A program made the position numbers and the translations under genes. The notes below the pieces were generated by a model that was not told where the DNA came from, made no database searches, and saw only the letters and a program-made list of their open reading frames with translations. From Candidatus Anderseniibacteriota bacterium (GTDB lineage: Bacteria > Patescibacteriota > JAUYIX01), in contig JAXLZM010000003.1 of assembly GCA_046350855.1 (NCBI GenBank), positions 12,311-76,310 of the forward strand: 64,000 nt of DNA, in the 5' to 3' direction. This document shows, in pieces, positions 10,658 through 50,025 of this stretch. Positions within the stretch are counted from its first letter, which is position 1, and every line of letters begins with the position of its first letter.

Positions 10658-10745
10658 TGGTACCCGGGGTGGGATTTGAACCCACATGAGCTTTCGCTCG
10701 ACAGATCTTAAGTCTGTTGTGTCTAGCCAGTTGCACCACCCGGGC
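10658..10745 (-). tRNA. tRNA-Leu (anticodon TAA), long variable arm, CCA encoded
   Basis: The reverse complement gives GCCCGGG-TG-GTGCAACTGGCTAGAC, anticodon stem ACAGA/TCTGT with loop CTTAAGA, a long variable arm and T-arm GGGTTCAAATCCCAC. Confidence 0.85.
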
Positions 10746-11241
10746 CCGATTTTTTATTTCTACCACGATGCGTCGGTTTAAGGCTGTGGCAGTTTGGACA
10801 AAGAATTCTAAGGTTCTCTAGCCGGTTATCATGCCTATCTCCGTTGATATGATCAAGTTCCAAGGGTAAATATCCGGTACTTGATCTGCGGGCCCAACCA
10901 CACTCCTCACACCAAGGACTCTTGAGTCCCGCAGCTATAAGTCGTTTTTTTAATTTATAGCTTTGATAGTGGACATTTTGTCTCAGAATCTTGCTCAAAG
11001 GAATCAATGGTTTAGTGCCAAGTTTGCATCCTTTACTCCAGAGCCTCCCAGAAAAATGCTTGGTTGATAGTCCAAATTCAAGAACGTATTTCTTAATTTG
11101 ATCATAATTTCCTCCAGCTGCAATCAAGTTGAGCTTATTGAGCACTTGCCGGTAACTTCTTGAAGTTTTGACGGCTAGCCTGAGCTGTTGCTCGGTCCAA
11201 CTTCGTTTTCGCGTTTTTCCTGGCGTATGCAAAATTGGCAT
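10723..11241 (-). CDS. HNH homing-type endonuclease; C-terminal 23 nt overlap the 5' end of tRNA-Leu(TAA), stop is the TAG of the tRNA D-loop
   Basis: HNH motif CEECGWARR...LELDHINGDRHDNRLENLRILCPNCH. The last codons (GPGGATG, stop) are read from GCCCGGGTGGTGCAACTGGCTAG of the tRNA. Looks AT-richer than the neighbours by eye. Confidence 0.8.
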   Translation of the reverse strand: MPILHTPGKTRKRSWTEQQLRLAVKTSRSYRQVLNKLNLIAAGGNYDQIKKYVLEFGLSTKHFSGRLWSKGCKLGTKPLIPLSKILRQNVHYQSYKLKKRLIAAGLKSPWCEECGWARRSSTGYLPLELDHINGDRHDNRLENLRILCPNCHSLKPTHRGRNKKSGPGGATG

Positions 11242-11264
11242 ACTCCAAAGGGTACCGTCCTCAC

Positions 11265-11282
11265 CTTAAGAAAAGATTAAAT
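11265..11282. repeat. 18-nt intergenic motif CTTAAGAAAAGATTAAAT (copy 1 of 3), 23 nt upstream of the HNH start on the gene strand
   Basis: Identical to 18876..18893 and 17/18 identical to 50048..50065. Confidence 0.7.
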
Positions 11283-11286
11283 GCTA

Positions 11287-11727
11287 CTAGAGTTTTGCCG
11301 CAGCCGGTTTGGCCGACGTAGGAGTTGCCGCTGTCGCTTTTTTGATTTCTTGATCGCGATGCACTGCTGCACGACCGGCTAAGCCACGCATGTAGTACAA
11401 CTTAGCGCGACGCACCTTAGCCTGCTTTTTGATCTCAACTTTTTCGATCAAGGGCGAGTGCATAAAAAAAGTGCGCTCGACTCCGATCCCGTTAGCTACC
11501 TTGCGCACCAAAATACTGGCACCCAACTTACCGCGGCGCACCGACTTGAGCACCAAGCCCTCAAAAATCTGGATGCGAACTTTGCCTTTTTCCAAAATGC
11601 GCTGGTGCACGGCAACCGTTGCCCCGGGACGAACCTCGGGCAGATCTGCCCTAAGCTGACCCGCTTCTACGCTGGCCACCAGAGATTCGAGTGATTTTGT
11701 GTTTGTTGAGCCTTCCATAGCGGGCAC
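11287..11727 (-). CDS. rplS: 50S ribosomal protein L19 with Ala/Lys-rich C-terminal tail
   Basis: FMHSPLIEKVEIKKQAKVRRAKLYYMRGL is L19-typical. Confidence 0.85.
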   Translation of the reverse strand: MPAMEGSTNTKSLESLVASVEAGQLRADLPEVRPGATVAVHQRILEKGKVRIQIFEGLVLKSVRRGKLGASILVRKVANGIGVERTFFMHSPLIEKVEIKKQAKVRRAKLYYMRGLAGRAAVHRDQEIKKATAATPTSAKPAAAKL

Positions 11728-11730
11728 ACC

Positions 11731-12321
11731 CTACCCCGTGGCCAAACACTTGTCAATGCTTTTTTGGATAGTCGCAACGGTTTGGCCAAGGTGGCCCTCC
11801 TCGTTATAGATGACGCTGTCGTACTCACGGATATGTTTGAGCTCCCGTCGAGCAGTCTGTAAACGCTCTCGCACTTTGGCCACAGAGATATCTGGCTCAC
11901 GACGAATGATGCGTTTTTTGAGGGTCACCAGCTTTTTGGTGGTAATAAAAAAAGAACAAATGCGATAGTGGTGCAAGCGCCGGATCTTAGCGAATCCTTT
12001 TACATCGATAATCTTGACCGGGATTTTGCCCAAACGTATGACACGTTCCAGATCGGCCCATAGAGTGCCAAAGGAGTAGCCATGTACGCGTGCGGTCTCG
12101 ACAAATTTACCGGCCTTACGCCACGCTCCAAAACGTTTGGGCGTGACGCGGCGATACTCCAGATCTTGTCGTTTACGATGCCCTGCCGGTCGCGTCGTTG
12201 TGCTCAGTACCGTAGCGTAGCGTCGCGATTTTTTAAGCAGGCGTTCTAAGACGACGCTCTTGCCGGCCCCACTCGGTCCAGAAATCACCACTAGTAGTCT
12301 TTGTCGCTGCTCCGTCCCCAT
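11731..12321 (-). CDS. gmk: Guanylate kinase
   Basis: P-loop ISGPSGAGKS and the TTR motif. Confidence 0.75.
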   Translation of the reverse strand: MGTEQRQRLLVVISGPSGAGKSVVLERLLKKSRRYATVLSTTTRPAGHRKRQDLEYRRVTPKRFGAWRKAGKFVETARVHGYSFGTLWADLERVIRLGKIPVKIIDVKGFAKIRRLHHYRICSFFITTKKLVTLKKRIIRREPDISVAKVRERLQTARRELKHIREYDSVIYNEEGHLGQTVATIQKSIDKCLATG

Positions 12322-12330
12322 ACATCCAGT

Positions 12331-13098
12331 CTACTTGATCTGTGCCAAAAAGTTTTTTAGCTCCAGGGGCAGTGGTGCGATAAAGGTTACTCCCCTACCG
12401 CTCACCGGATGAACAAAATTGAGTTGCGCCGCGTGTAAAAAGTGGCGCGTGAGTCCTTGTTGGGCACTTGCCGCGACCAACTTTTTTGGCGCGTAGAGCT
12501 GGTCACCCACAACCGGGTACCCAAGTGCCTTGAGGTGCACCCGAATCTGATGGGTGCGGCCGGTTTTAGGGTGGGCCTCGAGCAAGGTGGTGTCCGCAAA
12601 GCGTTTTTGCACGACAAAATCGGTCCGGGCCGGACGGTATAGCGTCTGGTCGGCCAGCGTAGCTACATCGTTAGGATGACGGGCGCCAAAGGTCCCCGAA
12701 CCGGTACGGCGGATAGAAAGTTCTGCCGTTGTATGCTCCCACGGGACCCGACCATACACGAGTGTGAGGTACTTTTTTTGTACGTGTCGATCTTTAAAGG
12801 CCGCCTTAAGTTTTGTAAATGCCGTCGGCGTACGGGCCACGACCAGCACACCTGAGGTATCCCGGTCGAGTCGATGCACAATCCCGGGTCGATCGGGGTC
12901 CTCGCCCACACCCCGTAGCTCTGGGTAGCGCTCGAGGAGCCAGTCCACCAAGTTCGCCTCGTGTTTTTTCTCGGTTGGAGCGCGGTGCACGGCCAAACCT
13001 GCGGGCTTGTCGAGCACGATGAGCTGTTCATCCGTAAAAATGAGGCGCGGGGCAGGTTTATTTTGTTTTTTGGCACTCATTGCCGGCCAGTGTAGCAT
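12331..13098 (-). CDS. RluA-family pseudouridine synthase
   Basis: Catalytic motif HRLDRDTSGVLVVA. Confidence 0.8.
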   Translation of the reverse strand: MLHWPAMSAKKQNKPAPRLIFTDEQLIVLDKPAGLAVHRAPTEKKHEANLVDWLLERYPELRGVGEDPDRPGIVHRLDRDTSGVLVVARTPTAFTKLKAAFKDRHVQKKYLTLVYGRVPWEHTTAELSIRRTGSGTFGARHPNDVATLADQTLYRPARTDFVVQKRFADTTLLEAHPKTGRTHQIRVHLKALGYPVVGDQLYAPKKLVAASAQQGLTRHFLHAAQLNFVHPVSGRGVTFIAPLPLELKNFLAQIK

Positions 13099-13119
13099 GC
13101 AGCTAGGTACTATAAGCTG

Positions 13120-13195
13120 GGGCCTGTAGCTCAGTGGTCAGAGCAGGCGGCTCATAACCGCTTGGTCGTTGGTTCGATCCCAACCGGGCCCACCA
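13120..13195 (+). tRNA. tRNA-Met (anticodon CAT; elongator-type or tRNA-Ile2 precursor), CCA encoded
   Basis: GGGCCTG acceptor with a G-U pair, anticodon loop cTCATAAc, T-arm GTTGGTTCGATCCCAAC. Confidence 0.8.
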
Positions 13196-13215
13196 AAAAA
13201 TACGTCCGCGGCGGA

Positions 13216-14370
13216 TCAAACTACCGTTCGGCGGAGATGCTGTGCGATGTGCACGAGCAAATCATACGGGATGGTCTTGCAACGCACGGCCGCTTGCGCG
13301 ATCGAGTTGGGAGCACTGGGATTTTGACTAAAGACGATGACCGGATCGCCCGCTTTGGCCTCGGGTAGATCGGTGATGTCGATCGAGGCGATGTTCATAC
13401 TGATGCGACCGATGATCAGCGCTGGTTTGCCGTGCACGCTGACGCTGCCGTTGCCGGAGAGGCGACGGTCGAGGCCCTCAAAATAGCCGATTGGGAGGGT
13501 GGCGACGCGGGTCGGACGCGTGGCGGTAAAGGTGGTGTTGTAGCCGACGTGCTCCCCCGGTTGAATGGTGCGTACAGCGGTAATCTGCGTCACAACTTGG
13601 AGAGCAGGCTTGAGATCGAGCGACCGAGCGGCGGCGGGGTCAATGCCATAGAGTCCGAGTCCAACCCTGGCACTGTTTGCCCGGATCTCTGTGGCAAATT
13701 GGGTGCCTGCTGAGTTGGCCACGTGTACTTGGCTGAGCTGCGGAAACACTGCATGTAGCCGCTCAACGACACGGTTCCAGACTTTGATTTGCATTCTCGT
13801 AAAATCCGGTACTGGTCCATCGGCATCAGCGAGGTGCGTACAGACCCCCGTGATACGGACGTTGGGGTTGCGCTTGAGCAGCTTGATGGTCTCATCAAGT
13901 TGGCTCACTAAAATTCCCTGTCGATGCATGCCCGTGTCGATCTTGAGATGAAAGGCTTGCGGAACGGTGAGTCTCGCGACGACTTCGCGCACGTGCTCGA
14001 TCCCGATTAGAGCAAAACTAACCCCGCTAAACTTTTGGCGTGCAATGTTGTGGGCGCTGGTGTAGCCCAAGACCAGTACGGGAGTACGGATGTGCTCATT
14101 TTGTAAGACCAACGCTTCGTAAAACGAATCGACCACCATAAAAGGTGGGTTGAGTCGATCAAACAGTTTAGCCACCGGGATTAAACCGTGTCCGTAGGCG
14201 TTACTTTTGAGAACAGGTGCCACGGCGCGATCGCCGAGTAGACGTACAAACTGAGCAAAATTGTGCTCGAGACGTGCTCGGCTAATTCGCACCGAGATCA
14301 ACGGTTGATACGTAAAGCGTGCCCGACGTAGCCACCTAAAGAATGCTCGCATACCGGCCGATCCTAACAC
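13216..14370 (-). CDS. alr: Alanine racemase
   Basis: PLP-lysine region VLKSNAYGHG and overall Alr length and organisation. GTG start. Confidence 0.8.
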   Translation of the reverse strand: MLGSAGMRAFFRWLRRARFTYQPLISVRISRARLEHNFAQFVRLLGDRAVAPVLKSNAYGHGLIPVAKLFDRLNPPFMVVDSFYEALVLQNEHIRTPVLVLGYTSAHNIARQKFSGVSFALIGIEHVREVVARLTVPQAFHLKIDTGMHRQGILVSQLDETIKLLKRNPNVRITGVCTHLADADGPVPDFTRMQIKVWNRVVERLHAVFPQLSQVHVANSAGTQFATEIRANSARVGLGLYGIDPAAARSLDLKPALQVVTQITAVRTIQPGEHVGYNTTFTATRPTRVATLPIGYFEGLDRRLSGNGSVSVHGKPALIIGRISMNIASIDITDLPEAKAGDPVIVFSQNPSAPNSIAQAAVRCKTIPYDLLVHIAQHLRRTVV

Positions 14371-14433
14371 ACGAGTTACGCATTGCGAATTAGTATAGAA
14401 ATCGAACCAAAGATGGTAGTATTGTACTACTAT

Positions 14434-15120
14434 ATGGTCTATCTAAAAGAAGAGTATAAACGAGCTATTTTTTTACGTTCTAAGGGCAAAACTTTTACTG
14501 AGATTAAAAAACAAGTACTCGTTTCTAAAGGTACCTTAAGCCTGTGGCTTAGAGATGTACCGATGGCCTCTAGATTCGAAAAAAAGATTTCTTCAAGAAA
14601 AAGAAAGGCTCTTCATTTTGCAAGAGTAAAAGCAGCTGCGTGGCATAGGAGACAAAAAGAGCTACGTCTAATGGTTGCGGATGAACAAGCTAAGGCAACA
14701 CTGAATCAAATTGATTTAACGCATGTACCAACACTGGAGTTGGCCCTGGCACTACTCTATTTGGGCGAGGGCTTCAAAAAGGTTCCCCAGACGGGTCTTG
14801 GCAACACTGATGTCAGTGTACTAAGAATATTTGTTCAGCTTCTTAAAAGCTGTTATGGAATTCTTCCCGCAGAACTGAATTGTCAATTGCATCTTCGCTA
14901 TGACCAAAACGAGTTACGAGAAAAGAAATATTGGTCAAAAGCATTGGGAATTCCGTTAGTCAAATTTAAATTTACTGCTTTTGATAAGAGAACCAAAAAT
15001 TCAAAAACGTACAAAGGCTATCATGGTGTATGTGCAATTCGAGTACGCGATATTGCAATCCAACGTAGACTGGTTAGTATTGGAAAACAGTTTGCCGGAT
15101 TAGCAAACACGCGCGCATAG
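14434..15120 (+). CDS. Putative homing endonuclease-like protein: N-terminal HTH plus single LAGLIDADG-like motif (LALALLYLGEGFK); paralog of 48051..48719; last 10 nt overlap tRNA-Val(GAC), stop is TAG of the tRNA D-stem
   Basis: Alignable with 48051..48719 (LRSKG..T...SLW.RDV; L.L.LLY.GEG.K; YWSK..GIPL). AT-rich by eye. The ORF track starts at TTG 14383, but alignment with the paralog favours ATG 14434. Confidence 0.5.
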   Translation: MVYLKEEYKRAIFLRSKGKTFTEIKKQVLVSKGTLSLWLRDVPMASRFEKKISSRKRKALHFARVKAAAWHRRQKELRLMVADEQAKATLNQIDLTHVPTLELALALLYLGEGFKKVPQTGLGNTDVSVLRIFVQLLKSCYGILPAELNCQLHLRYDQNELREKKYWSKALGIPLVKFKFTAFDKRTKNSKTYKGYHGVCAIRVRDIAIQRRLVSIGKQFAGLANTRA

Positions 15121-15187
15121 CTCAGCCTGGTTAGAGCGTACCCTTGACATGGGTAAGGCCCCAAGTTCAAATCTTGGTGCGCGCACC
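15111..15187 (+). tRNA. tRNA-Val (anticodon GAC), CCA encoded
   Basis: GCGCGCA-TAGCTCAGCCTGGTTAGAGC, anticodon stem TACCC/GGGTA with loop TTGACAT, T-arm CCAAGTTCAAATCTTGG. Confidence 0.85.
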
Positions 15188-15209
15188 ATAAAACCTAAAA
15201 AAGGGTAAA

Positions 15210-16820
15210 CTAAGACTGGCGCGCTTTGTGCTCCTTGAGTTCGGCGTTCTCTTGCTCCAAGGCAACCACTTTGCGCTCTTGGTCAACGATAAACTCGTTG
15301 GTCTCTTTGAGCTGGGATTTGAGAGTGTTGAGTTTTGCCAACAATTTAGTACGCTCGGAGATCGGTCGAAATATCTTTTGGACGGCTACGACTTTTCCAT
15401 CGTGTAGCATGGGGTGGGCGCGTAGTTCAAACATCTGGGTCGAACCATCTTTTTGCCGTAACAGGACCGTGTAGGCCGGATGTGTTTTACCAGAGAGTGA
15501 GTCAGAAAAATTCTTGAGCAAAATCGGCAGCGATGAGGGCGGCACGATCCCACTATCGGCAAAAAACGTGCCGGCGAGCTCATCGCGCGAGTAGCCCAGG
15601 GTGTCTTCAAAAGCATGGTTAACCGTCCGAACACGCCCCTCTGGATCAAGCACCAAAATAGGATCGAGTGAGCCCTCTACGATCTCATCGTGGTCCTGCT
15701 GTATCGAGCGCAGACGCCTAATCATGTCCTGAGCGGTACCGAGTGCTCGGCTGCGCGCGTTGAGCAGGTCTCGTACCGAGAGTGCAATGAGCGAACTCAA
15801 AAACAGACCGATCAACAAAACGATACTTGAGGTCCACCCACCCAGGGGATTATTTTTTTTGAGCTGACTGATGCGTACGGTCCAGGGTTGGTCCGCAACG
15901 GTTACTTCTGCATCACGTGTAAAGGCGGGGTCGGGAGAGTTTTCGGCAAGTTTAGTTCGTTCATAAAACGGATCAGCGGTATCGGGTGAACCCTCATAGA
16001 GCTGCACGTTGATGTTAGGTGAGAGCTCTAGCTCGTTGAGCGCCTTATCAAAAAAGGTCTCGGCAATAAAACTCACCGAGAGTATTCCAGCAAAAGCTGC
16101 CCGACGCTGATCCACCGTCGTCAGCGCTGCCCCCTTTTTGTAAAGCGGGGCCATAAATAAAAAGGCGGGTTGGTTGGTGATGACCGAGTCGATCTCTTTA
16201 GTGACCGTAATTGAGCCGCTGTCGCGCGCTTTTTCGGCGGCCGCTTTGCGATTAGGCTCAGAAAAATAATCAAAGCCCTGGCCGGGGGCAATGTTGCCGT
16301 CGTAGGGTTCGTAATAGGTTACGGGCAAATAAGCACTGCGCTGGCCGGGCGGGTCGATGGAGAAACTCGGGAACCCCTCTGGCCGCAAACTCTTATCTGT
16401 CCTGACTTCTTCTTCAAAAGCTTGCTTGTTGGCATCCGGCACGTAGACCGCAAACGCGCTACTGGTGATGCCGCTGATCTTTTTGCTCGCACTGAGGATC
16501 TGATGGGCCCGGTCGTACTCACCAAAGGTGACTTTTTGACTAGCTTCAAATAAAATTTGGAAAGAATCGATGTAGCTTGTCGCCTCGGAGACCGAGTCCG
16601 CGACGAGCCGCTCAACACGGGCCGCATCCCGCAAAAAAACTTGCTGTTCGGCTCGGATCACGAGGGCATGCACGATCTGCCAGACGGCGATCGTACCGAG
16701 CATCAAAATAAAAAAGATCGCTAATACAAAGCCAAAGGCCCGGCCGCGATCCACTTGCGTTGATTTTTCTTTTTCTCCTTTATGCATAAAAGGGCCAAAG
16801 GCTAATAATAGCATAGACAT
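15210..16820 (-). CDS. Membrane sensor protein with extracytoplasmic CHASE-like domain, TM segment, cytoplasmic PAS domain and C-terminal coiled coil; no kinase or other output domain
   Basis: N-terminal TM, a periplasmic domain of about 270 aa with CHASE-like features, a second TM, a PAS-like segment (ILVLDPEGRVRTVNHAFEDTLGYSRDELAG) and a heptad-rich tail. Confidence 0.55.
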   Translation of the reverse strand: MSMLLLAFGPFMHKGEKEKSTQVDRGRAFGFVLAIFFILMLGTIAVWQIVHALVIRAEQQVFLRDAARVERLVADSVSEATSYIDSFQILFEASQKVTFGEYDRAHQILSASKKISGITSSAFAVYVPDANKQAFEEEVRTDKSLRPEGFPSFSIDPPGQRSAYLPVTYYEPYDGNIAPGQGFDYFSEPNRKAAAEKARDSGSITVTKEIDSVITNQPAFLFMAPLYKKGAALTTVDQRRAAFAGILSVSFIAETFFDKALNELELSPNINVQLYEGSPDTADPFYERTKLAENSPDPAFTRDAEVTVADQPWTVRISQLKKNNPLGGWTSSIVLLIGLFLSSLIALSVRDLLNARSRALGTAQDMIRRLRSIQQDHDEIVEGSLDPILVLDPEGRVRTVNHAFEDTLGYSRDELAGTFFADSGIVPPSSLPILLKNFSDSLSGKTHPAYTVLLRQKDGSTQMFELRAHPMLHDGKVVAVQKIFRPISERTKLLAKLNTLKSQLKETNEFIVDQERKVVALEQENAELKEHKARQS

Positions 16821-16854
16821 AGCAGCCCATTTTGGTATAGGTTAGTCAATGCTT

Positions 16855-16940
16855 GGGCGCGTGGCGGAATGGCAGACGCGCTGGCTTCAGGAGCCAGTGG
16901 CCGCAAGGCCGTGGAGGTTCAAGTCCTCTCGCGCCCACCA
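16855..16940 (+). tRNA. tRNA-Leu (anticodon CAG), long variable arm, CCA encoded
   Basis: GGGCGCG acceptor, anticodon stem CTGGC/GCCAG with loop TTCAGGA, T-arm GGAGGTTCAAGTCCTCT. Confidence 0.85.
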
Positions 16941-17006
16941 AGCAAAAACGCCCCATGGGGCGTTTTTGCGTTGCGCCTTCTGAAGCGCCTTGGTCTGGCC
17001 CTCTTA

Positions 17007-17414
17007 TTACTGAACCGTAATCGTGCCTTTCATTCCGAGCGCCTCGTGGCCCGGCATGGTGCACCTGACCGTGTAGGAACCCGCTTTGGGCGCTGCGACC
17101 GTCACCGTCTCAGCTCCACCCGCTGGCACCGTTACGTTGATGCCGAGGTCGTTAGCCGTGTACGTATGGCTCAAGCTCCCCTCATTTTTTACCGTAATCG
17201 TATTAGTCACACCGGCCTTGAGCGTGAGCGCGCTCGGTGAGATGGCATACTCTGAGAGCGAGACCGTTACGCCGTTTTCTCCAACAGCAGTTGAGCCGGA
17301 GCTCGTGCTCGTAGCTTGGTTAGTCGTAGTGCTAGTGTTGGTGGTTGCCGATTTTGCACACCCGCCCAAAAGAGCGAGGCTGGCAAGTCCAACGACGACG
17401 TGTGTGAGTTTCAT
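17007..17414 (-). CDS. Cupredoxin-like (blue copper) lipoprotein
   Basis: Lipobox LALLGGC and a type-1 copper ligand pattern (H...C..H....M in SHTYT...CTMPGHEALGM). The start was moved to MKLTHVV, because the longer ORF to 17624 overlaps the helicase. Confidence 0.6.
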   Translation of the reverse strand: MKLTHVVVGLASLALLGGCAKSATTNTSTTTNQATSTSSGSTAVGENGVTVSLSEYAISPSALTLKAGVTNTITVKNEGSLSHTYTANDLGINVTVPAGGAETVTVAAPKAGSYTVRCTMPGHEALGMKGTITVQ

Positions 17415-17425
17415 GGTTGAACAAG

Positions 17426-18853: not shown

Positions 18854-18875
18854 ACTGCCGGACTAGCACACTTAG

Positions 18876-18893
18876 CTTAAGAAAAGATTAAAT
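18876..18893. repeat. 18-nt intergenic motif CTTAAGAAAAGATTAAAT (copy 2 of 3), 22 nt upstream of the helicase start
   Basis: Exact match to copy 1. Confidence 0.7.
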
Positions 18894-20927: not shown

Positions 20928-20931
20928 CGTG

Positions 20932-42070: not shown

Positions 42071-42099
42071 ACTTGCGTTACGTTATATGGCTAAATCCC

Positions 42100-42174
42100 T
42101 GGAGCGGGAGACGGGATTCGCACCCGCGACCTCTTCCTTGGCAAGGAAGCGTTCTGCTCCTGAACTACTCCCGC
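42100..42174 (-). tRNA. tRNA-Gly (anticodon GCC), CCA encoded
   Basis: The reverse complement gives GCGGGAG acceptor, anticodon stem CTTCC/GGAAG with loop TTGCCAA, T-arm GCGGGTGCGAATCCCGTC. Confidence 0.85.
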
Positions 42175-42243
42175 AAAAAGCTCGCTGTCGAGCTGGATTC
42201 TGTCCAGTTCGCCCAGTCTAAACTGCAAAAAGAGGCTTGTCTA

Positions 42244-43785
42244 CTAGTCTTTCTCAAGATCTTTTAGATCGGTGTCGGTGATCTCAAGTTGGTCCAAAAC
42301 CCATACATGGCGCTCGTTAGTTGGGTCAAATTTACCCAGGTTGAACCGATGTGCCTCTTCTGGCTTTTTGCCGATTAACTGCCAAATAGCCATGTTGCCT
42401 TCTCGATAAATGTAATCGCGGGTAAAGACCGCACCGGGGGTTTTGCCGTCGGTTCCTCTAAAGGTACGGACGGTGTTATCCCAGCCAACATTGGTGCCCA
42501 TTTCTGTGGCTTTGCGTATTTCCATTCCTTGGCTGATCCGGCGCAAAGTTGCATAGCGCTTGTTGATTTCGAAGAGCTCTCTAAAGTTTCTGGGCTTTCC
42601 GTCTATGCCAAGCGCCATACCAACCCCAAGATGGCCTGACGGAATTCCAAAGTCGACCCGGCCTTCATAGGCTTGTTCTGCTGCAATTGCGCCGCCCTCT
42701 TCTCCGCGAATATACCGATCAAGACCCGCTACTCCGAGCAGGCGCAATCTGCTGCGCTCACCACGCTCTCTGCGTAAGGGATGGGTAATAACTTCATGCA
42801 ATACGTAGGGCACTAAATCATTTATTTTTACGGGGTCGGAGGCCTGCTCAGGAACATAGACCTCTTTTTTATCCTGGCTGACTGCATAGCCTTTTCTGTT
42901 TGGATCGATAACGACTTTCCAACCAACTTTATCTAGACTAATGGTTTTAAGCGCGCTCTCGAACTCCTGGGCGACTTGCTCTGAGGTTAAGTCAAGTTGT
43001 TCTGGATGTTGCTTATTTCGCGGCAATTTAGTCTTCTCTACCCCGTATTTTTGCTCAATAGTCTCGATTGTTTCCTTAAACTGCGTACGATTTACTTTTT
43101 CGTAGTAGTCAATGGTCTCTTTAGGTGGGTACAAAAATTGCGTCTCACTCTGGCTTTCACTTGGGAGAAGTGCAAAAAACTCATCAGCCATTTTTTGAAC
43201 TTCTGGATTGTCAGGATGCAATTCACGTGCTTTTTCGGCTTCTTGTCTCACACCGTTAACGGTTGCAAAAAACATATCCTTATCTGGTTTACCAAAAACA
43301 TATTCGGAATAGCGCATAAACCGTCGGCTTTTACCTTCAGCCGTTGCACGAAGCATGCGGATGCTGGCGATCGATTCATTAATGCGCCAAAGATACGCCA
43401 TACGCATAACTAACTCTGGATCCTGCCTAGTCTCTTTTTTCCAAAGATCCGCCATCTTTCTACCAATATCTTTTTCGTTGAGTTGTAGCTCCTTCTTAAG
43501 GCTGAGCAACGTGTCTTCTTGTTGTTGTAATTGAGTCAGCTTCTCTGGAGTCAATTTGGGATAGTCGAGTTCTGGACTCTCGATTTCACCCTTTAAGAAA
43601 GCCTCCCGCTGGGAAGCGATTTTTTGCGGCGTATTCTCGATTGAGCTAATTACTTCAACCCCAAGATAGGGCTGAACACGATCATAGAGCTCCTTATCTA
43701 GCTGAGTTTTTTCCTGCTTTGGAGACTCCGCTGGAAGACCCAGCTCGTACGGTGAAGGACCGCGTTCAACGGAAAACATGGGCAA
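42244..43785 (-). CDS. DUF1704 / QEGLA-motif family protein (MATCAP-like putative HExxxH metallopeptidase), paralog A, AT-richer
   Basis: AYLWRINES, FGKPD, LHEVITHPLRRE, LDRYIRGEEGGAIAAEQAY and GKFDPTNERHVWVLD, all shared with the neighbouring paralog. Confidence 0.5.
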   Translation of the reverse strand: MPMFSVERGPSPYELGLPAESPKQEKTQLDKELYDRVQPYLGVEVISSIENTPQKIASQREAFLKGEIESPELDYPKLTPEKLTQLQQQEDTLLSLKKELQLNEKDIGRKMADLWKKETRQDPELVMRMAYLWRINESIASIRMLRATAEGKSRRFMRYSEYVFGKPDKDMFFATVNGVRQEAEKARELHPDNPEVQKMADEFFALLPSESQSETQFLYPPKETIDYYEKVNRTQFKETIETIEQKYGVEKTKLPRNKQHPEQLDLTSEQVAQEFESALKTISLDKVGWKVVIDPNRKGYAVSQDKKEVYVPEQASDPVKINDLVPYVLHEVITHPLRRERGERSRLRLLGVAGLDRYIRGEEGGAIAAEQAYEGRVDFGIPSGHLGVGMALGIDGKPRNFRELFEINKRYATLRRISQGMEIRKATEMGTNVGWDNTVRTFRGTDGKTPGAVFTRDYIYREGNMAIWQLIGKKPEEAHRFNLGKFDPTNERHVWVLDQLEITDTDLKDLEKD

Positions 43786-43911
43786 AGTATACCGTACCAG
43801 CCAGGTTGACCAAATGACATTTTTATGCTATTTTGCGGGGCTCTTTTGCCCTTCGACAATCCGTAAAAATCGTATTCAATCTGGTACGCAACCCATGAGG
43901 ACAAGCAAGAT

Positions 43912-45354
43912 ATGAGTGAACCAACGCACGTGGACTCAGAACTGTACGATCGGCTCAAGGAGCCCTTCGAGATGGACGCTCTTACCTATATCCAGGTCGA
44001 CGCAAAGTTGTTCCTGGCACAACGCCAGGACTTTTACGACGGCAACCTGCGCAACCCCGTCTTTACGTACAGCGGCTTGACCAAGGAAGTCTTGGCCAAG
44101 ATGAACCAGTTCGAGATGTTGCTTTTGGAAGCTCGCAAGGAACTGCGTGGAACGGATCGTTCCTACGCCCGCATCATGCAGGGCGGCTGGAACTCCATCA
44201 CGCGATCTCTGGAGACTGGTCGTCGTTTTGCCTACCTCTGGCGTATCAATGAGGCGCTCGCCAAGGTGCGACTGATCAAGGCCTGCGCCTCTGGCAAAAC
44301 CAAGCGCGCTCAACGCTACTCGATCTTCATGTTCGGCAAACCGGACTACAAGATGTATCGCGCAAGCGTGGCCGAGGTTCGTGCTGAGGTGCGTCGCTGG
44401 CAAGAGGCGCAGCCGGAGAACGAGGATCTCAAGCGCGTTGGCAACGAGTTGCTGACTCTCCTGCCCGATATCGGGCCGGAGGAACAGTACGAGTTGCCCA
44501 AGCCCAACCTGATCGCCAAACTCACGCAGTACGTGCGTGAGCAGTTCAAGTCGGTCATCGAATTCTATGAGAACCGCTACGGTGCGGACAAGACGCAGCG
44601 CGGTCTCGAGAACCTCGGCGACCTACCGTTTGTGACTAAGGAGGAAGCAATCGTCGGGTTCCAGTTCGCCATGCAGGTCTTCGCTCTGTTCAAGTTCGGG
44701 TTCAACCTTATCGTGACCTGGGCCAAGCGCGGCTATTCCGTCTCCCAAAAGGAGCTGGCAGTGTTCATTCCGGCCGATCCTGACTGCGGCAAAATCAAGT
44801 GCAACGAACTGGTGCGCTGGACGCTCCATGAGGTCTGCGTACACCCGCTTAGACGGTTGCGCGGACATCTCAGCAAGCTGCGACTTATGGAGTTTGGCCT
44901 CGATCGTTACGAGGCTGGAGAGGAAGGTTCGGCAATTGCAATCGAAGATGCCTACACCGGAGAAGTGCTGGGCTATGGTTTTGCGACCGGACCAGTCGCT
45001 GTCTCTCTCGCTCTCGGACTGGATGGTACGCCGCGCGACTTTCGGGACTTGTTCGAGATCATGTCGTTGTACGCGATCTGTCGTCGACTAGGGCCTCAAA
45101 AGCTCCCGCTTGAGAAGGCCACTCATGATGGCAAAGTCCTTGCCTTCGACAACACGATGCGGACCTTCCGGAGCGGTGACCCCTCCATTCCTGGTCGCGT
45201 CTTTACCAGGGACATCATCTACCGGAGAAGCAACCGTGCTTTTTGGGAGACGATGGAGTCGCATCCGGAGCGACTCGAGCACTTACTGGACGGCAAGTAC
45301 GATCTCGCCAATGAGCGACACATGTGGATTCTCGAATGCATCGAGGCTGCATGA
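43912..45354 (+). CDS. DUF1704 / QEGLA-motif family protein (MATCAP-like putative HExxxH metallopeptidase), paralog B, GC-richer
   Basis: FAYLWRINEA, FGKPD, LHEVCVHPLRR, LDRYEAGEEGSAIAIEDAY and GKYDLANERHMWILE. Confidence 0.5.
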   Translation: MSEPTHVDSELYDRLKEPFEMDALTYIQVDAKLFLAQRQDFYDGNLRNPVFTYSGLTKEVLAKMNQFEMLLLEARKELRGTDRSYARIMQGGWNSITRSLETGRRFAYLWRINEALAKVRLIKACASGKTKRAQRYSIFMFGKPDYKMYRASVAEVRAEVRRWQEAQPENEDLKRVGNELLTLLPDIGPEEQYELPKPNLIAKLTQYVREQFKSVIEFYENRYGADKTQRGLENLGDLPFVTKEEAIVGFQFAMQVFALFKFGFNLIVTWAKRGYSVSQKELAVFIPADPDCGKIKCNELVRWTLHEVCVHPLRRLRGHLSKLRLMEFGLDRYEAGEEGSAIAIEDAYTGEVLGYGFATGPVAVSLALGLDGTPRDFRDLFEIMSLYAICRRLGPQKLPLEKATHDGKVLAFDNTMRTFRSGDPSIPGRVFTRDIIYRRSNRAFWETMESHPERLEHLLDGKYDLANERHMWILECIEAA

Positions 45355-45425
45355 ACTACAACGGCCCCACTCTTCGAAAGAAGAGTCGGGGCCTTTTTCT
45401 TTTGGGGCACTTTGTTAGCCCCTAT

Positions 45426-46892
45426 TTATGCTAGCCGGTAAATCTCGAACGCATCCCCCACGCCCTTAAGCGAGACGGTGTCTTTTTTGGCCTTGAGTTT
45501 GGCGTCGGACATAACATCCCGTACACGCGGAGCAACATAGACTTGCGGTGAGACGACGATCTCGCCCGCGTTAGCCGCGTTTTGGACGCGAGCCGCGATG
45601 TTGACGGTCTGACCAAAGTAATCCAGGCGCTCATTGAGTTCGACCGCGATACAGGGACCAGTATGAATACCGATTTTGAGGACGAGGTCCTCGTCCATCC
45701 CCACACTTTGGATTTCGCGGTTCATCCGAGCAGCGGCCTCCAGAGCGGCAGCGGGATCCGAGAAGCTGGCCATAATGGCATCGCCGATAGTTTTGACCAC
45801 GGCTCCACCGGACATTTTGACGATCTTGCGTAGGAGGGCAAAGTGCTCACGGACGATCCCGTAGGCTTTAAAGTCGCCAATACGACGGTACATCTCGGTC
45901 GACCCCTTAAGGTCAGTAAATAAGAGGGTCAGGTTTTTGAACTCCAACCCATTACCGGACGGGATACTCTCCGAGCGAAACAGGTCCCGAAAAGTCTGGG
46001 TCGTGACCAGGCGCTTACCATTGAGATAGGGCAAAAAATCGGGCTTGGGTTTTTTACCGGGCTTACCAAAGCTGTCTTCCATTAACTTTTGTGGATCGCG
46101 GATCAGGCCGTAGGCGCGATCGCGACCGACGCGGTTACGGATGGTGAAGTGTTGTTGGCCCGGAGCCAACTTGACCTCATCGGGGATAAAGGCGCCATCG
46201 ACATGCTCCACCACTACCGCATGCTGCTCACTCTTAGGCGTCACATCGATCTCCAGATTAGCGTGCTCCAAGGGAGAACCGAGCGAGTAGTGGCCGGGGG
46301 TGAGCTTGGTGTCGATGGCAGTGGCACCGGGTTTGAGCTTACCGGTCAGGATGGCGCCTTGTTCGATAATCTCTTTTTTGCGCTCGAGATCGGTGACGCT
46401 GGTCGAAAAAAAGACCGTCATGACGTCGCGGATGGTGGTCAGCTCGGTCGGAGTATGAAAACGAATGTGACGCACGGAGGGCGAGACGGTAAAGGCCACC
46501 TCCACGTTATCGTCGATGTTGCTCTGCACCGGCAAGCGGCAGAGGCCACAGTTCATGTTTTGGTTGAGGGCTTTGAGACCACCGGCCGTGGTGATAAAGC
46601 CGCCACAGAGCGGACAGAGTACGCCCCAGTTAAAGTCGAGAAGTCCGGCGTGCGCGGCGTGCAAAAAAAGATCGATCCCGACCGACTCGGGGATCTTGTG
46701 GGCCGCGGCATAGCGCAGTGGGCTCATCCTAAAGAGCTCTTCGTCTGAGGCGTTATCTAAAAACTCGGCAAAGTCGTCGATGACCCGAGACTCAAATCCA
46801 CCGTTGGCTCGGACCGCGTCCAAGCGGGCCATGCGCGCAGAGAGCGCCATAGCCTCGGCAACGCGTTCTCGATAGTTGGCAGGTTTTGGCAT
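45426..46892 (-). CDS. Class III adenylate/guanylate cyclase with N-terminal Cys-rich (zinc-ribbon-like) sensor domain
   Basis: C-terminal cyclase core (FTDLKGSTEMYRR...VKTIGDAIMASF), N-terminal CPLCGG...CGLC. Confidence 0.75.
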   Translation of the reverse strand: MPKPANYRERVAEAMALSARMARLDAVRANGGFESRVIDDFAEFLDNASDEELFRMSPLRYAAAHKIPESVGIDLFLHAAHAGLLDFNWGVLCPLCGGFITTAGGLKALNQNMNCGLCRLPVQSNIDDNVEVAFTVSPSVRHIRFHTPTELTTIRDVMTVFFSTSVTDLERKKEIIEQGAILTGKLKPGATAIDTKLTPGHYSLGSPLEHANLEIDVTPKSEQHAVVVEHVDGAFIPDEVKLAPGQQHFTIRNRVGRDRAYGLIRDPQKLMEDSFGKPGKKPKPDFLPYLNGKRLVTTQTFRDLFRSESIPSGNGLEFKNLTLLFTDLKGSTEMYRRIGDFKAYGIVREHFALLRKIVKMSGGAVVKTIGDAIMASFSDPAAALEAAARMNREIQSVGMDEDLVLKIGIHTGPCIAVELNERLDYFGQTVNIAARVQNAANAGEIVVSPQVYVAPRVRDVMSDAKLKAKKDTVSLKGVGDAFEIYRLA

Positions 46893-47037
46893 AACCGATT
46901 AGTTGTACAGCATTTTGAGCAACTATTCAACCGGTGCGGCTCACATTGTTGTTACGCCAGATACAAAAAGGCCCCGGTTTACACCGGGGCCTTTAGTTCA
47001 CCCTGCCTTAGGTGGGACAGAGTGGCAGACTAGACGC

Positions 47038-47430
47038 TTACGCGCTTACCGCCGAGGACGAACCATTCTTACCCAAGAAAGCGGCAAGAAGTGCCCAGAT
47101 ACCGATCGCCAAGTGCAGGATCGAGTCGGCTGGGTTCTCAAGGTTTGCACCCAAGAACGCCGGGGTAAAGATCGAGTAGATACCGACCAATACGCCGATA
47201 ATTCCGAGCAAGACCACGACCCACTTTTGGACCATTGCTGGTACTGCAAAAGCGAGGATCAAGGCGACAACACCCAAAATGGTGTGGGCCCAGTTCTCAC
47301 CGTTATCAAACCACCAGGCATCGCCAAAGATGGATTGATCTGGGGTGGGACCAATGATCCCAAAGAACCCGATGACTCCGACCAACAGCAATACGATGCC
47401 GCCGATCAGGAGGAACTGTTTAGCGTTCAT
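47038..47430 (-). CDS. Hypothetical membrane protein (four TM helices)
   Basis: 130-aa hydrophobic ORF. Confidence 0.4.
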   Translation of the reverse strand: MNAKQFLLIGGIVLLLVGVIGFFGIIGPTPDQSIFGDAWWFDNGENWAHTILGVVALILAFAVPAMVQKWVVVLLGIIGVLVGIYSIFTPAFLGANLENPADSILHLAIGIWALLAAFLGKNGSSSAVSA

Positions 47431-47559
47431 ATAGGTAGAAAGCTTAATGGATTAGGGGCCAAGGCGGCCGTTAGGGCATTTATAGCACATCGCTTCCACA
47501 AATGGAGTGGCCTTTTCCACATCAGCTGCCGGTTGAACCGGGGCCGTCGGACAGCCCCG

Positions 47560-47634
47560 TGGAGCGGGAGACGGGATTCGAACCCGCGACCTTCTCCTTG
47601 GGAAGGAGACATTCTACCCCTGAACTACTCCCGC
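47560..47634 (-). tRNA. tRNA-Gly (anticodon CCC), CCA encoded
   Basis: Near-duplicate of tRNA-Gly(GCC). Anticodon stem TCTCC/GGAGA with loop TTCCCAA. Confidence 0.85.
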
Positions 47635-47647
47635 CAGTTTCTCCCTA

Positions 47648-47939
47648 TGGTGCCGAGGGCCAGGATCGAACTGGCGACGCCAGCCTCTTCCATACTTGGA
47701 CTATCTCATCATCCTTGCCTATTTGTTCAGACAAGGAGCTGGGCGCTTGTGTAGGAGTATTGTTGGGACTCACCTACTAGTCTCTACGCCTTCCGGTGGA
47801 ATTTAACCCGTACCGGCTTGGTTCGGGATTGGCAAACTTACGCTTGCTTTTCCCCGAGTTCACCCAGTTTTTAAAGATTCATTACTGAACCATGCCCCAA
47901 AGAGTCTAGGGCTGCGCTCTACCACTGAGCTACCTCGGC
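47648..47939 (-). tRNA. tRNA-Phe (anticodon GAA) interrupted in the anticodon loop, after U33, by a 217-nt group I intron; exons 47908..47939 and 47648..47690
   Basis: 5' exon GCCGAGGTAGCTCAGTGGTAGAGCGCAGCCCT, 3' exon GAAGAGGCTGGCGTCGCCAGTTCGATCCTGGCCCTCGGCACCA. The spliced product folds into a canonical cloverleaf with loop CUGAAGA. Confidence 0.8.
47691..47907 (-). mobile_element. Group I self-splicing intron (subgroup IC3-like, no ORF) in tRNA-Phe
   Basis: P1 pairs exon GCCCU with intron GGGGC, with a U.G wobble at the 5' splice site. P10 pairs intron UCUUU with 3' exon GAAGA. The R element GUAGAGACUAGUAGG and S element GAUGAGAUAGUCC (P7) resemble the Azoarcus and Anabaena tRNA introns. 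Omega-G comes before the 3' splice site. Confidence 0.8.
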
Positions 47940-47983
47940 ACGGCTGGCATACTAACAGCTCATCCTGCCTCAATCAACTCATG

Positions 47984-48060
47984 TGGTGGGCACTGTAGGG
48001 ATCGAACCTACGACCTCGTCAGTGTAAATGACGCGCTCTAACCAGCTGAGCTAAGTGCCC
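47984..48060 (-). tRNA. tRNA-Val (anticodon TAC), CCA encoded
   Basis: The reverse complement gives GGGCACT-TAGCTCAGCTGGTTAGAGC, anticodon stem CGTCA/TGACG with loop TTTACAC, T-arm GTAGGTTCGATCCCTAC. Confidence 0.85.
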
Positions 48061-48719
48061 AAAGATGCTTTAGTTACACCCTCTATCCAACCAAGAATAG
48101 ACAATAATAGCCGAGTGTCACAGATAACGATATCGAAGGTACCATATGGTAACGAATCTCGCTTACCCTTGCTGTTGCGGTTGCGTTTTCGATATGTTTT
48201 GTAAAACTGTTTTAGCGGAATACCAGAAACTTTTGACCAGTAGTGTTCTGCGAACCGATGGTCAAGGTGACCATGGATATGAATATGTCCTCTGAACTTT
48301 TTTTCTGGAACAGCACAAATCTCTTTAAAAAACCGCATCATTATTTGAACACTTTTTGGATCTCCATTGGAGAACCCAACTAAACCGTGATTTGTCTTTC
48401 TGCCCTCTCCCCAATACAAACCAATGCCCAGAATCCACAGATCACGCCGCGAAATCCGCTTGATCGATGCTGCCGCTATACTAGTAGTAACCGCACGTTT
48501 TACCATTTCATGTCTGAGCCTCGTTTGACGCCTCGATTCAATAACCTCAATGCTTGTATGACGTGCTTTAAGCCTATTAACTTGTTTTGGAGTTAGAGAT
48601 ACGTCGCGGACCCAAAGACTTGCTGTACTTTTTGAAATAGCAAGGGCTCGCGTAATTTGTTTCAAGGAGTATCCCTTTGAGCGTAAAATTCTTGCCCTAC
48701 GTCGCTCGATAAGCTTCAT
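48051..48719 (-). CDS. Putative homing endonuclease-like protein (HTH plus single LAGLIDADG-like motif ILGIGLYWGEGRK), paralog of 14434..15120; last 10 nt overlap tRNA-Val(TAC), stop is TAG of the tRNA D-stem
   Basis: Paralogous to 14434..15120. AT-rich by eye. AT-rich promoter-like upstream region with TATTATGAT. Confidence 0.5.
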   Translation of the reverse strand: MKLIERRRARILRSKGYSLKQITRALAISKSTASLWVRDVSLTPKQVNRLKARHTSIEVIESRRQTRLRHEMVKRAVTTSIAAASIKRISRRDLWILGIGLYWGEGRKTNHGLVGFSNGDPKSVQIMMRFFKEICAVPEKKFRGHIHIHGHLDHRFAEHYWSKVSGIPLKQFYKTYRKRNRNSKGKRDSLPYGTFDIVICDTRLLLSILGWIEGVTKASLGT

Positions 48720-48756
48720 GGGACTATTTTATCATAATACACTATCCCAGGGTTCG

Positions 48757-48790
48757 ATTTTTTAAATTAAAAGCGCGGGAGTACCGCGCT
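48757..48790 (-). terminator. Intrinsic terminator downstream of small ORF 48853..49122
   Basis: On the minus strand AGCGCGGUACUCCCGCGCU is followed by UUUUAAUUUAAAAAAU. Confidence 0.55.
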
Positions 48791-48804
48791 CTATACAGTA
48801 GTTA

Positions 48805-48837
48805 GGGAGAGGGAGGATGAACCACGGTTCATCCTCC
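48805..48837. repeat. SD-containing hairpin element, copy A (AGAGGGAGGAUGAACC-AC-GGUUCAUCCUCC)
   Basis: 12-bp perfect stem. Shares the AGAGGGAGGA prefix and the ...CCUCC closing arm with the elements at 63150..63186 and 63557..63589. Confidence 0.6.
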
Positions 48838-48852
48838 GGGAGAACTAGGGAG

Positions 48853-49122
48853 CTAGGAAGCGACGTCGCTCGCGAAGGTGGTCTCGGCCAGCACAGCCAA
48901 GCCCGCCAGACTACCCTGGTCGAGCATCTCGAAGTGCTTGCAGATCGGGCAACCGTGTGCACCGGCCGGGTGGATGAGGAGACGCTGCGTTTGGTGGTTG
49001 GTCTTGGGATTGTCGGTCGAGCCGTTGGGGCAGAAAGGTGAACGATCGCTGAACTGCCAACCGAACGAGTACGCAATGGGGAGTTTGCGGAGCTGATCCT
49101 CGGTCAGATTCTCAAATGCCAT
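48853..49122 (-). CDS. Hypothetical 89-aa Cys/His-containing protein (CPNG...HGCPICKH), own RBS and terminator, flanked by 16-bp perfect inverted repeats
   Basis: Strong SD (AAGGAG, 5 nt, ATG). Terminator at 48757..48790. Inverted repeat TACAGTAGTTAGGGAG at 48794..48809 and its reverse complement at 49152..49167. Confidence 0.5.
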   Translation of the reverse strand: MAFENLTEDQLRKLPIAYSFGWQFSDRSPFCPNGSTDNPKTNHQTQRLLIHPAGAHGCPICKHFEMLDQGSLAGLAVLAETTFASDVAS

Positions 49123-49287
49123 CCTTCTCCTTATGGGGCGTATCCGAAGCCCTCCCTAACTACTGTATGTGGTTCATACTGAACAAATCCCCTGAGGGGA
49201 CAAACAATGAGCTTATAGTAGTTGTGAGGTCGCGTCAAGCCTGGGCCTTTTTGGATTGGTCCGTCGGCTTGTATCTGAATATGTTCT

Positions 49288-49373
49288 TGGTGCGCGAGGG
49301 GGGATTCGAACCCCCAAGCCTTGCGGCACATGCACCTCAAGCATGCGTGTCTAGCCAGTTGCACCACTCGCGC
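49288..49373 (-). tRNA. tRNA-Leu (anticodon GAG), long variable arm, CCA encoded
   Basis: The reverse complement gives GCGCGAG-TG-GTGCAACTGGCTAGACAC, anticodon stem CATGC/GCATG with loop TTGAGGT, a long variable arm and T-arm GGGGGTTCGAATCCCCC. Confidence 0.8.
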
Positions 49374-50025
49374 AGTAACCAGCAGGGTACGGATCTTCCC
49401 AGAGTATTGCAAGCGCCTTCTGTTTTTTTCTTGCCAGATGAGGAGAGGCGCTATCTTGATAGAAAGCTGTCAGGATTTTGCGTGCCTCGTGTTTAGAAAA
49501 CTTGGCCTGATAGGCCCCCGAACCACTTGTAACATGGCCCTTGGCACCAATAGTTTGTTGTGTTGCTTTAACCAGCCACTTTGCAAATTGAGCACTAGCC
49601 GTTGCGAAAGCTACATAGAACATAAAACTGCTCCGCCAACGCGGGTCCCAATATGCATAGACAGTTCCATCACCGTCGAATAGGCCCCTTAAAAAGTCAG
49701 CAAAAAAGTTCGGTGGAATACTCAACTTACCTAGCGTTCTAGATTTTCTAGGAGTTAATCCAATCGAAAGTAGAAAACGATAAAAAGTAACATCTCCAAA
49801 CTGGAGCTGATAGCCATTGCTACGTCCTGTAAAACCACTTTTCTTTTTGCTTACCCGATTCTTAATCGCCAAACACTTTTTTAAGGTTTGGATAAGATCA
49901 AGATTATTAGATGTAAAAAATAGATGGCGACCGTCTGGAGAAAGACAACCATCGCTCGCCATAAGGCCAACGACATAGGCCATATTCGAGCTCCATTTAC
50001 AGTTTATCCGACCTAGTGGTCTCAT
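49351..50025 (-). CDS. LAGLIDADG homing endonuclease (two motifs: VVGLMASDGCL and LRGLFDGDGTV); last 23 nt overlap tRNA-Leu(GAG), stop is the TAG of the tRNA D-loop
   Basis: Classical double-motif LAGLIDADG. The C-terminal codons (ASGATG, stop) are read from the tRNA sequence GCGCGAGTGGTGCAACTGGCTAG. AT-rich by eye. Confidence 0.85.
   Translation of the reverse strand: MRPLGRINCKWSSNMAYVVGLMASDGCLSPDGRHLFFTSNNLDLIQTLKKCLAIKNRVSKKKSGFTGRSNGYQLQFGDVTFYRFLLSIGLTPRKSRTLGKLSIPPNFFADFLRGLFDGDGTVYAYWDPRWRSSFMFYVAFATASAQFAKWLVKATQQTIGAKGHVTSGSGAYQAKFSKHEARKILTAFYQDSASPHLARKKQKALAILWEDPYPAGYCASGATG

Follow-up and report, generated by a model that had tools for sequence, protein, structure and literature searches.

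The 64,000-nt stretch analyzed here (the window) covers positions 12,311 to 76,310 of contig JAXLZM010000003.1 and belongs to a metagenome-assembled genome of Candidatus Andersenbacteria, a member of the Candidate Phyla Radiation (CPR, equivalent to Patescibacteria). It carries four open reading frames (ORFs) for homing-endonuclease-type proteins, each of which runs into a downstream transfer RNA (tRNA) gene. ARAGORN called 12 tRNA genes in the window, which were confirmed by Rfam. The first ORF (10723..11241, minus strand) is an HNH homing-endonuclease gene of 172 amino acids (aa), and its last 23 nt, with the stop codon, lie inside a complete tRNA-Leu(UAA) gene whose CCA end is encoded (10658..10745, minus strand). 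Two further ORFs encode proteins that combine a helix-turn-helix (HTH) domain at the N terminus with one LAGLIDADG-like domain; we label these VP genes and name the two window members for the anticodons of their tRNA-Val partners. VP_gac (14434..15120, plus strand; 228 aa) and VP_tac (48051..48719, minus strand; 222 aa) place their last 10 nt inside tRNA-Val(GAC) (15111..15188, plus strand) and tRNA-Val(UAC) (47984..48060, minus strand), respectively. The fourth ORF (49351..50025, minus strand) encodes a two-motif LAGLIDADG protein of 224 aa and extends 23 nt into tRNA-Leu(GAG) (49288..49373, minus strand).

An original prediction, made from the bare DNA of this locus, had described four such ORFs that overlap a co-oriented tRNA gene by 23 or 10 nt and stop on its TAG, and the ORFs and tRNA calls agree with it. 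No earlier in-frame stop was found for any of the four, either in the ORF list or in the raw sequence; the TAG occupies tRNA positions 21-23 in both Leu tRNAs (...GGTGCAACTGGCTAG) and positions 8-10 in both Val tRNAs. The NCBI protein for the HNH gene is also 172 aa long, indicating that the same stop is used, and for the LAGLIDADG gene NCBI annotates a 210-aa form. The prediction also held that these genes are richer in AT than the host DNA, and this is the case: their GC content at third codon positions (GC3) is 0.32 to 0.39 (VP_gac, 0.32; LAGLIDADG, 0.37; HNH, 0.39), compared to 0.627 ± 0.054 for 50 other window ORFs. The four ORFs thus hold the four lowest GC3 values of about 54 large ORFs in the window, 4 to 6 standard deviations under the host, and are compositionally foreign. 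Since they are also the only nuclease-like ORFs among these and all four end inside a tRNA gene, the arrangement is not due to chance.

The two Leu tRNAs linked to endonuclease genes carry an identical, unusual D-arm, TGGTGCAACTGGCTAGACAC, and because this arm is common to both, the translations of the HNH and LAGLIDADG ORFs both end in ...GATG before the stop. The unoccupied tRNA-Leu(CAG) of the window (16855..16940) has the ordinary D-arm form GGCGGAATGGCAGACGC, and AACTGGYTAGACA-like loops also occur in the HNH-linked tRNAs of loci L006 and L073.

The HNH ORF matches the Pfam families HNH_3 (30.4 bits; cut-off, 24.8) and HNH (27.7 bits; cut-off, 21.4) as well as PHROG 10822 (E = 4e-43), and an alignment of 26 sequences showed residues C111, C114, C148, C151, D130-H131, N139/N143, and H152 to be invariant. 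The LAGLIDADG ORF matches Pfam LAGLIDADG_3 (E = 1.5e-9); both of its motifs, D25-G26 and D117-G118-D119-G120, are invariant, and its family profile matches the archaeal intron endonuclease I-Tsp061I (PDB code 2dch; E = 2.4e-7). Pfam gave weak HTH matches for one VP ORF and no meaningful match for the other, and the pair E105-G106 is invariant in the VP genes. The four ORFs appear to represent three unrelated nuclease lineages, namely HNH, two-motif LAGLIDADG, and HTH plus single LAGLIDADG-like domain. The earlier designation of the ORFs as free-standing homing-endonuclease-type genes is supported, and their catalytic motifs are intact. The two HTH genes had been described as paralogs; they do belong to the same superfamily, but their mutual identity is only 25%.

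All of these families are large. The HNH gene has at least 5,382 relatives (60 to 72% identity) and the LAGLIDADG gene at least 1,588 (identity of about 50%); VP_tac has no fewer than 645 close relatives, and 2,233 cluster representatives are related to VP_gac. HNH-tRNA-Leu(UAA) units at 65 to 72% identity were also present on contigs labelled Elusimicrobia, Omnitrophica, and Methylomirabilis (L001, L009, L019, L041, and L070), which reflects either transfer across phyla or mis-binning of the contigs.

We assessed whether the tRNA partners are shared by these relatives. For the HNH family, loci were counted for the best 80 of at least 599 matches in species-representative genomes, spanning nearly all CPR lineages. 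The HNH ORF was followed directly by a co-oriented tRNA-Leu(UAA) gene in 78 to 79 of the 80 loci, and in 43 of the 80 a co-oriented tRNA-Cys gene lay within about 250 nt upstream. The LAGLIDADG gene had tRNA-Leu(GAG) directly downstream in all eight distinct contexts, next to upstream genes that varied (rplS, udg, and OTCase). VP_tac relatives adjoined tRNA-Val(UAC) in all 74 metagenome loci with enough flanking sequence, with the tRNA at the start of the ORF, and VP_gac homologues adjoined tRNA-Val(GAC) in three of four other contexts (four of five when the window is included). The systematic pairing with isoacceptors that had been proposed for this one genome is therefore borne out far beyond it.

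The VP genes combine this fidelity with a variable layout. VP_tac relatives lie 3' of a co-oriented tRNA-Val(UAC) in 44 of the 74 loci, where the tRNA 3' end mostly falls 53 to 62 nt before the ATG, and are divergent from the tRNA in the other 30; with the window type, this makes three configurations. The fourth VP_gac homologue (39% identity) adjoins tRNA-His, and other paralogues lie upstream of tRNA-Gly(GCC), tRNA-Ala(GGC), tRNA-Ile(UAU), and tRNA-Cys genes. A LAGLIDADG paralogue likewise precedes a tRNA-Cys gene in L059. In locus L371, a small GIY-YIG gene (L371:1494..1877) and a VP-like gene lie on opposite sides of tRNA-His(GUG), which adds a third nuclease type located at a tRNA gene.

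The original prediction had described all four genes as terminating on the D-arm TAG. This is true of the present genome and of the VP_gac subfamily, but it does not extend to the other families. The distance from HNH stop to tRNA ranged from -53 to +20 nt: 42 of 77 ORFs stopped inside the tRNA, between -1 and -53 nt and at many positions that included the anticodon TAA, with one ORF spanning the whole tRNA, and 35 of 77 had their own stop 0 to 20 nt before it. The gaps between LAGLIDADG ORF and tRNA were -36, -23 (window), 5, 6, 8, 10, 11, and 12 nt, such that six of the eight contexts had their own stop. These variable stop positions rule out the D-arm TAG as a defining feature of the HNH and LAGLIDADG families. 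What is conserved is juxtaposition at zero spacing with one specific tRNA, and conservation of the D-arm TAG stop itself is confined to VP_gac-type genes.

The stop position bears on a reading in which the overlap is functional, coupling nuclease synthesis to tRNA processing. Cleavage by RNase P would then leave a stop-less mRNA whose product is tagged by transfer-messenger RNA (tmRNA), and stable nuclease would arise only from the unprocessed precursor. Such coupling would fit the overlap of all four window ORFs with their tRNA and the 42 HNH homologues that stop inside theirs. It would also fit the VP genes, in which four distinct VP_gac-type homologues at 43 to 45% identity (L255, L367, and L368-370) keep an identical 10-nt overlap and frame even though their C-terminal tails are not conserved, and the layout and 10-nt overlap of the window VP_tac recur in its closest relative, L253 (63% identity). 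We nonetheless consider this reading unlikely, given the scatter of HNH stops, the independent stops in most LAGLIDADG contexts and in nearly half of the HNH loci, and the position of most VP_tac relatives, which do not precede the tRNA. The stop on the tRNA TAG is probably a by-product of zero spacing between the ORF and a tRNA segment inherited with it, rather than a designed feature.

To look for traces of insertion, we searched for tRNA fragments beside the cassettes after masking the called tRNAs. In L250, L095, and L090, the LAGLIDADG ATG is preceded, at a distance of 18 to 40 nt, by a 5' half of tRNA-Leu whose end falls at the anticodon (…CTTGAG), and a different, complete tRNA-Leu(GAG) follows the ORF. 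A 5' tRNA fragment also precedes the HNH gene in L015, L019, and the phage locus L201. For VP_tac relatives of the type with the tRNA upstream (L082, L095, L098, and L158), the fragment is instead a tRNA-Val 3' part, running from positions 44-52 to 73-75 and located 29 to 117 nt after the ORF. The simplest reading of these footprints is that the tRNA gene itself would be the insertion target and that the cassette would bring a replacement segment. The original prediction had placed the homing site in the tRNA 5' half. The displaced halves do indicate the tRNA gene as the target, but the 5' half is too narrow a definition, since VP_tac relatives sit 3' of the tRNA or diverge from it and phage HNH genes lie 3' of tRNA-Leu(UAA).

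Other fragments were found near HNH loci, and the HNH cassette does not explain them. Leu 3'-end fragments (positions 67-87) lie about 110 nt after tRNA-Leu(UAA) in L007, L057, L064, and L078, and Cys 5'-end fragments (positions 1-33) precede tRNA-Cys in L008, L030, L057, and L078. These may be footprints of other elements.

Partial tRNA duplications of this kind, together with the status of tRNA genes as classic integration sites, would also suit an explanation in which the ORFs mark the edge of an integrase-type island or prophage inserted in a tRNA gene, or else encode endonucleases of tRNA group I introns. Insertions in CPR ribosomal RNA (rRNA) genes encode LAGLIDADG enzymes, and group I introns occur in CPR tRNA genes (PMC13011429; Tsurumaki et al. 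2024 cited there), including one in the tRNA-Phe gene of the window. We regard this explanation as highly improbable for the four loci. The tRNAs are uninterrupted at all of them, the cassettes are single genes of about 0.6 to 0.75 kb, and housekeeping genes of normal GC content (rplS, udg, and alr) lie within 45 to 65 nt of each ORF. No integrase or recombinase gene was adjacent to the window cassettes and no repeats were found at the window loci, which, with the proximity of the host genes, speaks against integrase-type insertion. Rfam reported no RF00028 match at the four loci, at the gathering threshold or at E values of ≤1, and no group I intron or ribozyme in L250, L095, L090, or L015 at permissive E values. 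Group I and group II introns are rejected for the four loci, as Rfam was empty there even though the same method detects the tRNA-Phe intron.

The original prediction had called for a comparison of occupied and empty tRNA loci in related genomes; we made this comparison and found both states. Occupancy was scored in loci that had been fetched via a different family. LAGLIDADG occupied tRNA-Leu(GAG) in 3 of 30 cases, HNH occupied tRNA-Leu(UAA) in 1 of 4 (occupied in L135 and empty in L085, L121, and L141, with tRNA-Cys, a 235-nt spacer, and tRNA-Leu(UAA) following one another in L121), and VP_tac occupied tRNA-Val(UAC) in 0 of 3. One locus compared in this way was rplS followed by tRNA-Leu(GAG), a widely conserved gene pair. 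It is empty in L158 and at least 20 others and holds an intact LAGLIDADG gene in L095, L244, L250, and L090. In L125 the site looks empty, and about 95 nt of the LAGLIDADG 3' end remain against tRNA-Leu(GAG), roughly 80% identical to the gene in L095 (L125:2230-2334 versus L095:1150-1256). L095, a close relative of L125, has the full gene, and L158 has none. L125 holds a decaying LAGLIDADG copy. The coexistence of empty, intact, and degenerate sites at one locus corresponds to the cycle of invasion, decay, and loss expected of a homing endonuclease gene. The window's own gene order, nfo-udg-LAGLIDADG-tRNA-Leu(GAG), recurs in L249, where UDG is 73.5% identical and tRNA-Val(UAC) has no VP gene beside it.

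Taken together, these comparisons suggest that the window ORFs are likely free-standing homing endonuclease genes (HEGs), with each family living at one particular tRNA gene. The nuclease would cut the cognate tRNA gene of an element-free genome, and repair would then copy in a cassette made up of the ORF and a replacement part of the tRNA, regenerating an intact tRNA gene beside the ORF. Cassettes of the HNH, LAGLIDADG, and window-type VP genes would supply the 5' half, those of most VP_tac relatives the 3' part, and the displaced original half would decay later. Such insertion with replacement would explain why the ORF and a tRNA end are inherited as a tight unit and why the ORF may run into the tRNA. 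In the tRNA precursor, the ORF would fall within the 5' leader (or 3' trailer), and ordinary end-processing would take off this segment, RNase P removing an ORF-bearing leader; for this reason, we propose, the insertion is harmless without splicing. An mRNA 3' end defined by RNase P, as the original prediction had proposed, is plausible.

Several points weigh against these genes being HEGs that target the tRNA gene. No remnant tRNA half was found at the four loci of the window, and only a minority of loci show the footprints that point to the tRNA gene as target: three of eight for LAGLIDADG, about 2 of 77 for HNH, and four distinct ones among 44 for VP_tac. Occupancy was scored on few loci for HNH (n = 4) and VP_tac (n = 3). 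The regenerated tRNA would retain the presumed target region, and the host would have to avoid cutting its own gene; when occupied and empty tRNA sequences were compared by eye for a resistance mark, there was no clear pattern. Finally, the identity of 60 to 72% that HNH proteins keep between very distant lineages could also reflect constraint by a host function. In an alternative reading, these would be domesticated host proteins, not selfish mobile elements, that serve the neighboring tRNA gene, either as regulators, like the LAGLIDADG-derived factor WhiA, or as factors for its maintenance or gene conversion. Domestication seems quite unlikely in view of the patchy occupancy and the degenerate copy, the GC3 values far under that of the host, the intact catalytic residues, and the homologues from phage tRNA arrays and from contigs labelled as other phyla.

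A more specific version of the HEG interpretation, which we put forward tentatively, is that the cassettes form a distinct class of intron-like selfish elements of tRNA genes that do without splicing. The endonuclease would cut the tRNA gene (in the anticodon loop, in the case of LAGLIDADG), and the cassette would insert at the cut and bring a replacement half that is possibly resistant to cleavage; RNase P or 3'-end processing would separate the leader or trailer with the ORF from an intact tRNA. With both homology arms given by the tRNA gene, such an element could move between unrelated CPR genomes and phages whatever the flanking genes, and it would carry tRNA segments along with it.

The search for relatives extended to phages. 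HNH relatives were encoded on 350 viral contigs; a tRNA gene lay within 200 nt in 52 of 66 distinct loci, and in 33 of these 66 loci a co-oriented tRNA-Leu(UAA) was directly upstream. VP-like genes of large phage contigs had a tRNA within 250 nt in 28 of 31 loci. Distant viral relatives of LAGLIDADG, which served as a negative control, were near a tRNA in 0 of 68, and a single-sequence search of viral contigs with VP_gac gave no matches. Consistent co-localization with tRNA genes is thus also a property of the HNH and VP families in phages, that is, of two of the three lineages. Among individual phages, the annotated HNH gene gp149 of Gordonia phage GodonK begins 4 nt downstream of tRNA-Leu and shares 10 nt with tRNA-Glu, the HNH gene of Escherichia coli phage EcSzw-2 ends 1 nt before tRNA-Leu, and that of a Pakpunavirus lies between tRNA-Gln and tRNA-Arg. 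These PHROG 10822 proteins belong to the same full-length family as the window HNH, at 37 to 44% identity, and likewise sit in tRNA arrays; unlike the window HNH, most phage members come after tRNA-Leu(UAA), not before it. We found no studies of the phage PHROG 10822 HNH genes beyond their annotation.

Free-standing homing endonucleases of phage tRNA gene regions include the HNH enzymes of the T5 tRNA region. SegB, a GIY-YIG enzyme of phages T4 and T6, cuts within tRNA genes and co-localizes with them in many phages; microhomology is reported between the segB 3' end and the 5' end of a tRNA, and reportedly no isotype is favored (PMC13096335, citing Brok-Volchanskaya et al. 2008). The original prediction had not recognized the present arrangement as a described one. 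Phage tRNA arrays with free-standing endonucleases such as SegB (PMC13096335), and the overlap of GodonK HNH with tRNA-Glu, show that it has precedents. Like segB, which spreads by recombination with co-conversion of flanking DNA, the window-type genes stand alone among tRNA genes. They differ in that they lie on CPR bacterial chromosomes, in that each family is tied to one isoacceptor, and in the duplicated tRNA halves that flank some cassettes. Pfam found no GIY-YIG domain in the window nuclease genes, which have HNH or LAGLIDADG (HTH-LAGLIDADG-like in the VP genes) instead and so are not members of the SegB family, although they would act in a similar way.

Comparison with introns and islands gave a similar mixture. 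The cassettes share with CPR intron-encoded endonucleases the phylum, the LAGLIDADG and HNH superfamilies, and conserved structural-RNA genes as targets, and the insertion point suggested for LAGLIDADG falls in the anticodon loop, the usual position of tRNA introns. In contrast to those elements, the window cassettes have no ribozyme and leave the tRNA uninterrupted, and splicing would apparently not be needed to keep the tRNA gene functional, since the cassette carries a duplicate half and normal end-processing would do the rest. Integrase islands and prophages likewise insert in a tRNA gene, regenerate it from a carried segment, and leave a partial duplicate. The cassettes differ from islands in being single genes without a recombinase, and in that the 5'-side families duplicate the 5' half, whereas islands usually duplicate the 3' end. 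Our literature search found no report of stand-alone endonuclease genes flanking CPR tRNA genes or of isoacceptor-specific partnerships; only tRNA and rRNA introns were described. What is new here is a CPR chromosomal, isoacceptor-tied variant of the free-standing tRNA-region endonucleases known from phages.

There are thousands of these stand-alone endonuclease genes, in three lineages, each tied to one tRNA isoacceptor. In the tiny genomes of CPR bacteria, where rRNA insertions and tRNA introns are already known, they add a third and apparently undescribed layer. If the tRNA genes are indeed cut, the enzymes would be natural, highly specific nucleases against conserved sequences of 70 to 90 bp, and they would open a path by which tRNA genes could pass between phages and CPR bacteria, as well as from one CPR lineage to another. 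Cutting would also mean that normal tRNA end-processing can stand in for splicing in making an insertion harmless, and it would account for the overlaps between coding sequences and tRNAs and for the stray tRNA fragments seen in CPR and phage annotation.

The VP_tac cassette has a leader of roughly 55 nt (48720..48775, minus strand) that contains a ATCGAACC element. In VP_tac relatives (L082-L158), about 55 nt before the ATG, this element forms an inverted repeat, AATTGAACC...GGTTCAATT, around a TATAAT-like box. This leader is conserved across family members in both tRNA configurations, and the repeat arm resembles the tRNA T-arm GGTTCRAAT. The inverted repeat may serve as an operator bound by the HTH domain of the VP protein itself, or it may be left over from the target.

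A 22-nt motif, ATTTAATCTTTTYTTAAGRTGA, occurs three times in the window (11261..11282, 18872..18893, and 50044..50065, all on the minus strand), compared to an expectation of zero. Two copies directly follow rplS and udg and precede the start codons of the HNH and LAGLIDADG genes by 18 to 19 nt, and one overlaps a terminator-like hairpin at 50064-50083. The third copy, in an unrelated intergenic region (18872..18893), and the overlap with the hairpin speak against the motif being a part of the cassette; more probably, it belongs to the host's intergenic DNA and marks where the cassettes begin on their upstream side.

Several other features were recorded in the window. An ORF at 59895..60956 (plus strand) has a GC3 of 0.47 and no Pfam match. 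Two divergent paralogues with a MATCAP/DUF1704-type Pfam match lie at 42244..43785 (minus strand) and 43912..45354 (plus strand); the former has a GC3 of 0.46 and ends 69 nt before tRNA-Gly(GCC), and the latter is not among the 14 lowest GC3 values of the window. The interval between tRNA-Leu(GAG) and the VP_tac cassette contains a high-GC segment of about 340 bp, which is bracketed by a perfect inverted repeat of 17 bp (48793-48809 and 49152-49168) with an adjacent imperfect pair of 12 bp (region 48793..49180); an 89-aa ORF within the segment (48853..49122) has no Pfam match. Finally, a tRNA-Phe(GAA) gene that ARAGORN missed (47648..47939, minus strand) has exons at 47908-47939 (tRNA positions 1-32) and 47648-47690 (positions 33-75). 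A group I intron of about 230 nt that contains no ORF (47685..47917) interrupts this gene and matches RF00028 with 49.1 bits (gathering score, 50; E = 1.7e-11). Recognition of the tRNA-Phe gene restores the order Leu(GAG)-Val(UAC)-Phe-Gly(CCC) seen in L249.

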